NCBI GenBank assembly: GCA_963706715.1
Contig: CAVPNI010000003.1
Location: 576,001-640,000, forward strand
DNA length: 64,000 nt
From: an uncultured Verrucomicrobiae bacterium
GTDB taxonomy: Bacteria; Verrucomicrobiota; Verrucomicrobiia; Chthoniobacterales; Xiphinematobacteraceae
Reading direction: 5' to 3'
The number at the start of each line of letters is the position of its first letter. The stretch's first letter is position 1. The notes beneath the pieces were generated by a model. That model saw only the letters and a program-made list of their open reading frames with translations, did not search any database and was not told where the DNA came from. A program made the translations under genes and the position numbers. Of the stretch, positions 25,397 through 28,754 are shown in pieces.

Positions 25397-25917
25397 AGTG
25401 CAAATCACATACAACTCGCTCAGCAATTCACATTCAGGCAAAAAGAAGCGGAGTCCTTAGAGTAATCGATTTTCCAGATTTTCATTTGAAGGTATTGATA
25501 ACAATCAAAATATAACAAACGGAAATCATTTTTAAAAATTTGATCTGTGCAAAATCGAAGAAATTTTCGGATTTTGGATACAGTACGATATGAAAAATTC
25601 CAGCTCCGCGTATTCCAAATGGGAATAATTGTCGAATTTCATTGTGAAGTGGCAAATAGGGTGCGATTCCTGGCAGCCAATGGTGCTCCCGTTCAACTTG
25701 GGAAGCATAGATCGATCGCAGCGCTTGGCAACCGCTCACTCATGTGCTTACCGAGATGAAACGTTCTATTATCCCATCCATTTGAGACAACGGGAGCAAT
25801 AGGCAACTCCGCCCATTGAGGAAACTGCGTCAGGATTAATTGCCTCACTAGAGCATTTTTCATTTAACTATTTACATGCCTTGCGGCTCTTTTTCCGCCA
25901 GGCTTTGTTGCAACAAT

Positions 25918-27990
25918 ATCGAGTAGGAACCCTCATCACTGAGGGCTCCTCTCACAGAACCGTACTTGTGCTGTTCACATACGGCTCTTCGGAAACACGG
26001 GTTATGACCCCCATGGTTGGTATTACAACCTCGACTATTCAGAATGCCCATACGTATTGCATTGGCTTCTGAGCGGCCATGCGCGCAGGATGTTCCCTAT
26101 ACCGTTGTAGCAATGACTTGAGCCCGCGTGCATCCCAAAGGGAATTCTTCAGTACTCTGTCAACTGCTGTTGTGTGACTCAGCGCCCACCAGGACTTTCG
26201 TCCCGAGTAAATGCTGCGCCACGCGGTTTTGGGATTGATCCCGAGCCCAATCAGTTTACGAACGATGGTTCGTTTGCATTTGTATTGCTTGAGTTCCATT
26301 GCTCGCAGTCGCCTGCGAATGTGGGCGTCAAGTCCTTGCAGCGTCTTCTCGACTTGTTCTGTACAGATGCCAAAGAAGCCTGTCCATCCGATCACGTAGG
26401 CATTGATTTTGTTGATGCACGATTTTAAGGTGCCTCCCCAATTTCTCGGTGTCAGTTCTCGGATTTTGTTGTTTATGCGTTCTTTTGTTCGCTTTGACAA
26501 CCTCACTTCTACGTTGCCCTCTAAGGGTTCACGTCGCAGGCTACAGCCCAGGAAGTGACGCTCTTGTGGCTGTGCCACGGCACTTTTGCTGAGGTTCACT
26601 TTGAGACGCAAGCGCCTTTCTATGAAGTTGCTCACGCTAGCCATGACACGCTGCCCAGCTCGTTCGCTTCTGACGTAGATGTTACCGTCATCGGCATAAC
26701 GTACGAAGCGGTGGCCTCTTGCTTGCAGCTCCCAATCGAGTTCATCAAGCACGATGTTGCTGAGCAATGGGCTGAGGGGACCACCTTGCGGAACCCCCTC
26801 GTCGTTGCTCACCACTACGCCATCTGGCATTACAATTCGCGCTTTGAGCATTTGTCCAATCAGGTGCAGTAGTCTTTTGTCTTTTACTCGCTGCGCGAGT
26901 TTGGACATCAGTCTTTGATGGTTTACTCGGTTGAAGAAGTTCTCCAGGTCGATGTCTACCACCCATTCGCGTCCCTCTTGTATATACTCTTGTGCTTGTC
27001 GTATTGCTGTGTGGCAGCTTCGTTGGGGTCGAAATCCGTGACTGTTAGGGTGGAAGGTCGGCTCGTATTCTGGTTCCAGAACCTGTCGTACTGCTTCTTG
27101 GACCACCCGGTCTATCACGTTGGGTATGCCTAGACCCCTTTGTCCTCCTCCTGTTTTAGGTATCCACACGCGCCGAATTTCTCCAGGTCGGTAGTTTCCT
27201 TCTATCAGGGCTTGGCTCAATTTCGGTATTAGCTCGTTGAGGTGCTTGCGCACTTGTTCTATGCTTTGCCGATCTGGTCCAGGCGCTCCTTTGTTGCTCG
27301 CTACTGTTTCAAACGCCCCCTTTAATCTTCGTTCTACTTCTTCCATGGTCGCTGTCGTTGCTTTCTCTGGCTTGAGTTTTGGCATTGGCGGCGCGCACGC
27401 TCGAGCCGAGCTTCGGTGCTCCGCCCTTGCGCCGTCGCTGGGAGTTTGCACCCCCTCTTCGGCTGTTCCAAATTTCAGTTCAAGTTGCATTGACATTCGT
27501 TCGACCGCAACCGCCTTCGCTCCCCCAGTTTGCTTTCGCCGCTGGGTTGGGACTAGCTTTCGCTAGCCTTCTTGCTACTATGCAGTTGTCTGACTTCTGT
27601 TGGGCCTTTGGCCTTTCGTTCTTTCGTCCTACGGGTTTGCGCCAGGCTTTGGCCTGGCGCGGCCCAACAGATCTCTCTGGGTAAGAATTAACAAACTTCG
27701 TACTCTTGTCGTCGCCACTACACATGCAGTCCCCAACAGATTTTGGATTTCGCCACCGCCGGCTGGCTCGTCCACTGCATGCGCCTTACGGCGCTTCACT
27801 TTCGTTCGACTATCGTACGCACCTATAGCTTCTACCGTACATCCCCTCACGGGCCTTCCAGCGTTTGCTTCCCTCTGGTTGGGCTGTGGTTCTCCACTGC
27901 AATGCACTTGCCTCTTCGGTGTTAGGTTCCCTCTGTCAGGGCCCTAGGTTTGGATTTTCACCTCCTGTTTGTTATTCATGCCAGACACAC
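25918..27990 (-). mobile_element. Complete group II intron, class IIC
   Basis: 5' end GTGTG; short D5 GAGCCGTATGTGAACAGCACAAGTACGGTTC; D6 ending CCTACTCGAT; inserted directly after a stem-loop. Confidence 0.9.
26039..27496 (-). CDS. ltrA: Group II intron reverse transcriptase/maturase, no endonuclease domain
   Basis: NKGAPG.D, R.LGIP..DR, GFRP.RS, PQGGPLSPLLSNI, RYADD; true start may be further in. Confidence 0.95.
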   Translation of the reverse strand: MSMQLELKFGTAEEGVQTPSDGARAEHRSSARACAPPMPKLKPEKATTATMEEVERRLKGAFETVASNKGAPGPDRQSIEQVRKHLNELIPKLSQALIEGNYRPGEIRRVWIPKTGGGQRGLGIPNVIDRVVQEAVRQVLEPEYEPTFHPNSHGFRPQRSCHTAIRQAQEYIQEGREWVVDIDLENFFNRVNHQRLMSKLAQRVKDKRLLHLIGQMLKARIVMPDGVVVSNDEGVPQGGPLSPLLSNIVLDELDWELQARGHRFVRYADDGNIYVRSERAGQRVMASVSNFIERRLRLKVNLSKSAVAQPQERHFLGCSLRREPLEGNVEVRLSKRTKERINNKIRELTPRNWGGTLKSCINKINAYVIGWTGFFGICTEQVEKTLQGLDAHIRRRLRAMELKQYKCKRTIVRKLIGLGINPKTAWRSIYSGRKSWWALSHTTAVDRVLKNSLWDARGLKSLLQRYREHPARMAAQKPMQYVWAF

Positions 27991-28115
27991 CGGGCCGTAT
28001 CTACGGATATGGCCCAATTGTTGCGTCTCGCCTGACAAAAAAATTTCTTGCAACTCATGTAAACATTTAAATGAAAAATGCTCTAGTTCCACGCCAATGT
28101 TTACCGTACGATATT

Positions 28116-28754
28116 TCATCGATCCGGATTTTGAAATTGCCTAGGAAATTCGTTGCGAACTTTGTAGAATTGACTACGCGAAATAATACTCTGTACATAG
28201 GCCCTCGTAGAGGGAAAATCCATGAAAGTATGCAAATGTGCGGCCGTGGCACTTTCTCCTTGTCCGGAAGAATTTACCCAACGTTTTACTCGCGAGCGAC
28301 CAGCATTATACTCTGCTAATGCAAAAGCCCAGGGGCGATCACGATTCTGCCAATGCGTGAGGGCTCTTGCCAGGTACCAACACCCAACCTCCAGATTGGT
28401 TTCCGGCTTCGACAGTTCTTCGGGATCGAAATTGGACATTTTCATTGCTTTTGCCCAGTCCGCTCCTGCAGCAGCGGTAACCTGCATCAAACCATGTTCT
28501 CCTGAGGAACCCAATTTGTCCGTTTGAAACCGACTCTCTCTCCAAACGATCGCTTTTACTAGATTAGGATCCAATCCGTGCTGTCGGGCAGTTTCGGCTA
28601 TCAATTGGTCATATCGATGATAAAGATCCCCTGCAAGTGCTTCCCGGAAAGTATAGGAAATATCGATTTTTTGGAGTAACAAAATGGCACCAAGTAATGC
28701 TAGTCCTATTGCGATTAGAACGAGGCCCCATTTCCAAATCCGGTGTATTTCCAT
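28116..28754 (-). CDS. Lytic transglycosylase (SLT domain) with N-terminal membrane anchor
   Basis: AIVWRESRF, GLMQV, N...G.WYL, ALAEYNAG motifs. Confidence 0.92.
   Translation of the reverse strand: MEIHRIWKWGLVLIAIGLALLGAILLLQKIDISYTFREALAGDLYHRYDQLIAETARQHGLDPNLVKAIVWRESRFQTDKLGSSGEHGLMQVTAAAGADWAKAMKMSNFDPEELSKPETNLEVGCWYLARALTHWQNRDRPWAFALAEYNAGRSRVKRWVNSSGQGESATAAHLHTFMDFPSTRAYVQSIISRSQFYKVRNEFPRQFQNPDR

Follow-up and report, generated by a model that had tools for sequence, protein, structure and literature searches.

A class C-lineage group II intron nested in an IS630-type MITE within an APH-family pseudogene, and the hairpins at which its copies are found

Results

Anatomy of the locus

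The locus lies in a 64,000-nucleotide stretch of DNA, called the window below, and its features are on the minus strand unless stated otherwise. It is built of three layers: a 2,073-nt group II intron (25918..27990) lies within a 164-nt, TA-flanked MITE of the IS630 type, which itself lies within an APH-family pseudogene. The intron was delimited by Rfam matches, flank comparison and its genomic copies. The MITE, a member of family B, is split into a 5′ part (27991..28085) and a 3′ part (25849..25917), each with a terminal inverted repeat and a TA; the MITE-intron element spans 25849..28085, both TA included. Once the intron is removed, its flanks are 97.6-99.4% identical to nine intron-free 164-nt genomic copies, which bears out the three-level nesting claimed in an earlier note on this DNA. 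Nesting alone is ordinary in a genome this rich in mobile DNA (3.04 Mb in 4 contigs, about 15% of it repeated).

The interrupted gene consists of its first codons (28086..28119), the start overlapping the stop of an upstream lytic transglycosylase gene (28116-28754), and of a frameshifted and truncated remainder (25629..25848, lower boundary approximate) recognised by translation and protein match. On its two sides, the element is flanked by pieces reading MKYRTVNIGVEL and VRQL.., and the 44 downstream codons show a 73% match to an annotated aminoglycoside phosphotransferase family protein. According to the earlier note, taking out both insertions restores the start of an APH-family gene; the similarity seen to this family extends over 44 amino acids, the short fragments have no Pfam match, and the gene is frameshifted after about 45 codons and fades out soon after. 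It is a pseudogene independently of both insertions. The host-gene region was not found in the 4 congeners searched, which thus gave no empty allele. Contigs from four DNA sequencing runs matched short stretches and spanned none of the junctions between the three layers. The arrangement suggests that the MITE entered a TA of the APH-family gene and that the intron then entered the MITE. The intron is co-oriented with the transglycosylase gene, and its position suggests that it could be transcribed by read-through.

An in-frame, RPE-like MITE was ruled out because the MITE has a stop in the frame of the gene. At the MITE end (28064-28085 minus; 25849-25870), this frame shows a stop immediately followed by an ATG, at which translation could begin anew into the remnant downstream. 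Further along, a gene at 23330-25441 (minus strand) encodes a 703-aa protein in which a trypsin-like protease is joined to a non-specific DNA/RNA endonuclease (Pfam Trypsin_2 and Endonuclease_NS). Fusions of trypsin-like proteases with endonucleases may be related to defence. At the end of this gene, an orphan fragment consisting of domains V/VI from a group II intron of another, unrelated type is found at 23225-23301 (plus strand).

The intron and its class

The intron runs from 27990 to 25918, begins with GTGTG and terminates with domains V/VI. Rfam models RF00029 and RF02001 match at 25918-25989 (domains V/VI) and 27687-27856 (domain I), respectively. Its open reading frame (26039..27496) encodes a 485-aa RT/maturase with a YADD motif and RVT_1 and GIIM domains, in which the domain search matched no endonuclease family. 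The best match of the RT among solved structures is the GsI-IIC RT (393 bits, as compared to 140 for LtrA). In a 107-row FastTree phylogeny, from which five near-duplicate rows were left out, and in an IQ-TREE phylogeny of 38 rows chosen from the 107, the RT falls in a fully supported clade nested among class C introns with a CGC triad; this nesting concerns 28 rows in the IQ-TREE phylogeny, with 97/96 support. The references were labelled by their own CGC domain V and by integron or terminator context rather than by published names, and the g6, U1 and U2 types, as named in the portion of PMC8919778 at hand, were left out. Placement of the RT in a class C phylogeny had been named beforehand as a check, and the RT nests within class C in both trees.

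The 31-nt domain V (25957..25987) has a 2-nt AA bulge and the shortened, 3-bp distal stem of IIC introns; its triad is AGC, not CGC. According to regular-expression labels, the triad in the clade of the RT is AGC in 40 of the 50 rows, CGC in 1 and unscored in 9, as compared to 40 CGC, no AGC and 7 unscored among the other 47 class C rows. The IIC features listed in the passages of PMC1702495 to which we refer are the CGC triad, a short domain V, an IBS1-EBS1 pairing of 3-4 bp, the absence of EBS2 and an upstream stem-loop. All of these except CGC are found in the intron. Indeed, IBS1 and EBS1 pair at 3 positions in 26/26 clade members and at 4 positions in 16/26, and positions -4 to -20 of 11 sites carry no information, without any conserved IBS2. 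The putative coordination loop reads TAGAAG (IIC reference: AGGAA), and the first 3′ exon base varies among 10 junctions (A 5, C 2, G 2, T 1). The intron would therefore work like a IIC intron with a class C protein, yet fails one feature of the ribozyme. The class IIC assignment made in the earlier note consequently holds for the protein, whereas domain V departs from it.

The nearest full relatives of the intron, 75-77% identical, occur in Pseudomonadota MAGs. None of 300 genomes of the order has a close relative; 17 of them have an RT at E<=1e-60, at 35-46% identity in the long matches and at 51-62% in three partial ones. The viral contigs searched gave 0 exact matches to the intron's 5′ end.

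Intron copies in the genome

The genome contains 11 full copies, 9 uninterrupted and 2 nested, plus 4 fragments. The window intron is identical to 4 other copies and differs by 1 nt from 2 more, which makes 7 copies within 0-1 nt. Identical copies have traded flanks: as empty alleles show, the sequence on the 5′ side of one copy is contiguous with that on the 3′ side of a different copy. Such exchanges across contigs C1-C3 point to repeated rearrangement, or to mis-assembly, at intron copies.

After re-pairing of the exchanged flanks, the census gave about 14 sites (13-16, depending on the relics). Family-B MITE sequence flanks the intron in the window and at C1:670322, where a second 3′ half lacks its 5′ counterpart. 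In a composite MITE subfamily, a second hairpin is occupied once, with about 30 empty counterparts. Two IS families, which we take from their motifs to be IS630-like and IS3-like, are occupied once each, with 8 and 6 empty copies. Another site is the antisense strand of another intron copy, one is presumably an aldehyde dehydrogenase gene (read by eye, by motif), and several of the remaining ones are unique or low-copy. Of 11 5′ flanks, the intron strand is G-rich in 7, near zero in GC skew in 2 and C-rich in 2, weakly in line with the class C strand bias.

Three intron copies lie together at C3:213370-220740, including a head-to-tail tandem. There, one copy is inserted antisense into another, a middle segment is apparently inverted and a different IS630-like element sits inside one of the copies. 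The tandem and the nested antisense copy fit recognition of the 5′ side only. The copies at C1:811560-813636 and C3:218668-220740 comprise a variant that is 88% identical and has the same EBS1, and a mosaic copy in which all 83 differences fall in the 3′ third.

Hairpin, spacer and triplet at the 5′ junctions

The last three bases of the 5′ exon are YYG at 11 of the 13 junctions, the exceptions being the tandem junction and one diverged relic, both set aside before the folding tests. YYG pairs with the EBS1 triplet CGG of the domain Id3 loop (27759..27761, read from 27761 to 27759). Covariation was examined in those clade members of the alignment whose 5′ exon was usable (n=26): all 26 show pairing of the triplet with the three terminal bases of the exon, and 23 of the pairs are fully Watson-Crick, with 17 different triplets (shuffles: mean 3.2, maximum 10).

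The 11 exons fold with a mean of -7.9 kcal/mol as compared to -2.7 kcal/mol for random YYG sites, and against their own shuffles a Stouffer z of -7.0 was obtained. The genome is estimated to offer 12,000-48,000 sites that combine a hairpin with YYG. Little or no excess over shuffles was seen at three of the 11 sites (C3:131817, C3:566500, C3:216594), and a fourth (C2:260420) is weak. No hairpin followed by a T-run was found at any of the 11 sites, and 0/23 clade sites have at least 4 T in the last 12 nt. The absence of a T-tract at both sets of sites rules out terminator targeting. Overall, the alignment of all 5′ exons, which had been suggested as a check, reveals hairpins at YYG, but most copies lie outside the MITE and none at a terminator.

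In the window, IBS1 is CCG (27991..27993), and the stem-loop upstream of it (27995..28012; z -2.4 against shuffles) is the core hairpin common to the MITE superfamily. Position 27994 is C on the intron strand of the window copy and A in 9/9 empty copies, and this private base perfects the stem. The former description of the intron as lying 1 nt after the stem-loop is thus true of the window copy but not general. Since CCG is IBS1 and must be unpaired, 4 nt separate the end of the working stem from the intron. The insertion site falls in the 3′ arm of a long palindrome when the MITE is intact.

The window also contains an ISL3 transposase gene (28975-30306, plus strand). One intron 3′ end elsewhere in the genome abuts a leader of that ISL3 family, and 31 empty leaders read CCA, not YYG, before this point.

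The MITE family and its occupancy

The MITE is multicopy, non-coding and flanked by TA, and shares its terminal inverted repeats with an autonomous IS630, as IS630-type MITEs do; the element concerned is 1,029 bp long and present in 14 near-identical copies. The shared ends suggest that its transposase mobilises the MITE. The MITE superfamily accounts for about 3/14 intron sites while covering 0.83% of the genome (binomial p 2e-4). More generally, 6/11 5′ exons lie in repeats against a background of 15-21%.

Allowing at most 2 mismatches, 112 cores were found, 10 in family B and 102 outside it. The shared core is occupied in 2/11 family-B copies and in 0/102 non-B copies, giving a Fisher p of 0.009 if the two B hits are separate events and of 0.09 if they are one, as they may be. 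Per copy, the occupancy of family B (2/11) is similar to that of the two IS families (1/9 and 1/7). A YYG ending four bases after the stem (position +4) is offered by 11 forward-strand cores, of which 9 belong to family B, and by 1 core on the reverse strand; other MITE subfamilies offer YYG at +8 and +11.

The earlier note regarded the MITE hairpin as a renewable landing site and the related cores of family A as further potential targets. Use of the MITE is indeed recurrent and enriched, both here and at 4/4 relic junctions in the sister genomes described below. However, a dedicated MITE target is not supported, since roughly 11 of 14 sites lie outside the MITE; the copies sitting in two IS families, in unique DNA and in an antisense intron in part match the outcome named beforehand as refuting such a target. 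As to the family A cores, none of the 102 non-B cores is occupied and few have YYG at +4, although YYG is available at +8 and +11.

Relics in sister genomes and relatives in the wider clade

Two sister genomes, G001 and G002, contain intron relics only, with four junctions that all lie in the MITE superfamily. Three of them have matches to the MITE profile with E-values of 6e-7 or better. The fourth reaches only 2.4 bits against this profile (3/1,000 shuffles score higher) but matches the MITE copies of G002 itself at E 0.006. The junctions of G001 are at +8 and +11, and those of G002, a fragmented genome that is 73% complete, are both at +4, one on each strand. The differences in subfamily, strand and position argue for several independent insertion events. 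In G002, the MITE triplet at +4 is CTT in 8/10 aligned copies when read after the stem in forward orientation, and most copies have it on the reverse strand as well. The sole relic that keeps the loop has GAG as EBS1, which pairs with CTT with one wobble; by chance, such a pairing is expected at a rate of 1 in 16, and this relic is decayed and 76% identical to the intron. The intron is absent from both 0.9-Mb congeners searched.

At L003:1420-1575 (G001:C16), about 15 nt of the left arm of the MITE are complementary to the beginning of the adjacent intron relic, as though insertion had been followed by homogenisation of the palindrome. At L002:1430-1950 (G002:C168), a 407-nt 3′ remnant of the intron lies between both MITE ends and is a possible mobile composite.

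Many 5′ exons of the AGC clade resemble GC-rich palindromes, and a T-run is seen in 0/23. Their folding excess is modest (mean z -1.2, with 5/23 below -1.64). In one Acidobacteriota MAG, four introns (L018-L021) all sit at the same point of a palindromic repeat, within its 3′ arm. Together with these, L016 and L014-L015 are AGC-triad relatives in palindromic REP-like sequences of Acidobacteriota and Pseudomonadota MAGs; L014 and L015 have a similar target in different hosts.

Discussion

We consider it probable that an active, endonuclease-less class C intron with an AGC triad is spreading in this genome, the MITE core being one hairpin target that it uses recurrently. The demonstrated part of this reading comprises the anatomy, the class C placement, the EBS1/IBS1 covariation and the site census; we infer the mechanism, the order of events and the current activity. 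The target would obey the class C rule of a DNA stem-loop, a short spacer and a 3-nt IBS1, here YYG read by EBS1 CGG with a G-T wobble, the 3′ side being lax. The RNP would bind the DNA stem-loop and pair EBS1 with the triplet beyond the short spacer, with the anatomy depicted in extracts of PMC10190682. By analogy with class C introns, reverse-splicing would probably take place into single-stranded DNA at the replication fork, followed by copying by the intron's own RT. A C/G-rich guide would shift the intron from terminators to the hairpins of repeats: because there is no T-rich IBS1, terminators would be ignored and any fitting hairpin used. The IS630-type MITE core would be used repeatedly because it is abundant, folds and is harmless or neutral to hit, and the subfamily hit would depend on the pairing of EBS1 with the triplet ending four bases after the stem. 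Weak folds at four sites, CCA at one ISL3 3′ end and the two non-YYG junctions count against this explanation; the AGC triad, which departs from the IIC definition in the cited passages of PMC1702495, counts against its class C part.

Alternatively, and in our opinion rather doubtfully, the lineage could be adapted to the MITE, the core hairpin being its main niche, with EBS1 changing as the subfamilies diverged, the cut always at +4 and the other sites here being the spill-over of a burst. All relic junctions of G001 and G002 would agree with this, as would the +4 position of both G002 junctions, mostly facing CTT, together with GAG in the relic that keeps the loop. CGG would likewise suit family B and not the rest, where no core is hit, and the four Acidobacteriota introns also share one position of a palindromic repeat. 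However, such an adaptation leaves about 11 of the 14 sites here outside its niche and sits poorly with the +8 and +11 junctions of G001. GAG comes from a single 76%-identical relic, and a random triplet pairs with CTT once in 16; the family-B bias has p 0.09 if one event is counted; neutral DNA preferentially preserves old relics; and G002 is incomplete and fragmented.

We find it unlikely that a single insertion into a MITE was multiplied by the IS630 transposase, intron and MITE moving as one composite, so that MITE hits were over-counted. The window composite does have both terminal repeats intact, 14 near-identical IS630 copies with matching ends exist, the copy at C1:670322 has an identical MITE 3′ half in another context, and the G002:C168 relic retains a MITE end on each side. 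Hitch-hiking nevertheless fails to explain the different subfamilies, orientations and positions across three genomes, and this assembly contains no second intact composite. That YYG suffices whatever the structure, the excess in repeats reflecting selection against insertions in genes, is very improbable and already largely refuted: the proportion of 5′ exons in repeats and the several sites with weak hairpins would fit, but an excess of hairpins is still seen against composition-matched shuffles, and across three genomes six core junctions lie 4-11 nt behind the same stem.

In the preferred reading of a spreading class C intron with a short guide, several likenesses to known systems can be drawn. 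RmInt1 is a class D intron that homes into ISRm2011-2, an element of the IS630 family. Both RmInt1 and the window intron would use a multicopy IS630-related element as a safe site; RmInt1 homes into the transposase gene by long sequence pairing, whereas the window intron would read a hairpin in a non-coding MITE. GsI-IIC of Geobacillus stearothermophilus (RT, PDB 6AR1) and introns of the B.h.I1 type have, like the window intron, an RT/maturase without an endonuclease. Terminator-targeting IIC introns such as B.h.I1 also share the short IBS1-EBS1 pairing, the lack of IBS2 and the upstream stem-loop, as described in the passages of PMC1702495. In contrast to GsI-IIC and B.h.I1, the window intron has the AGC triad, a YYG IBS1, no T-tract at the 23 clade sites tested and a longer 5′ RNA, with 494 nt before the ORF.

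Introns of the IIC-attC group (S.ma.I2 type) target, like the window intron, a multicopy imperfect palindrome of another mobile system, according to the portion of PMC3001079 considered. Both are within class C in our trees. However, membership of IIC-attC was ruled out by the separate clade of that group, which has a CGC triad, and by the MITE target. IIC-attC introns use one strand of attC, whereas for the lineage of the window intron both strands of the MITE core serve as targets, along with many other hairpins. With the E.r. IIC intron-maturase-DNA complex (PDB 7UIM), the target order of stem-loop, short spacer, IBS1 and IBS3 is shared; the stem there is about 12 bp, the spacer 4 nt and IBS1 4 nt, as given in the extracts of PMC10190682, as compared to a 7-bp core stem, a 1-nt spacer, a 3-nt IBS1 and an apparently lax IBS3 in the window intron.

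Hairpin targeting by class C introns is itself already known: what is new is the AGC clade, the +4 rule for the subfamilies and the recurrence in sister species. A full-text literature search, with subscription papers, supplements and the Zimmerly intron database outside its scope, retrieved no title or abstract start dealing with class C introns in MITE or REP elements or with a class C clade that has the AGC triad, and a prior description is possible. Three specificities of group II introns, for homing sites, terminators and attC, are distinguished in the review text of PMC4424553 available to us. Class C introns are said to hide behind terminators, with a slight preference only for mobile elements, in passages of PMC7306698, and to be found also after 'other inverted repeats' in those of PMC1702495.

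The data separate, in nature, two parts of IIC target choice, a hairpin and spacer that stay fixed and a 3-nt guide that changes freely; with 17 different IBS1 triplets in 26 clade members, a retargetable hairpin-plus-triplet rule becomes directly testable. They also reveal a non-canonical triad in a class C ribozyme that is apparently still spreading, and suggest that MITE bursts create intron sites and that identical intron copies then rearrange the genome. A broader proposal, possible but advanced here only tentatively, is that a widespread and apparently undescribed AGC sub-lineage of class C left terminators for palindromic repeats and settled, in this genus, mainly on one MITE superfamily, with a +4 cut and a 3-nt guide re-tuned from species to species (CGG here, GAG in the sister). 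If so, palindromic repeats would be a further class of IIC target beside terminators and attC, and co-transposition of intron and MITE would be possible.

As regards the MITE itself, IS630-derived bacterial MITEs such as RUP and Correia have a TA target, ends in common with an autonomous IS630 and a long hairpin, as is the case in the window, where, unlike them, the MITE carries a group II intron. The reverse nesting, a MITE inside a group I intron, is described for Thiomargarita in PMC4853749.
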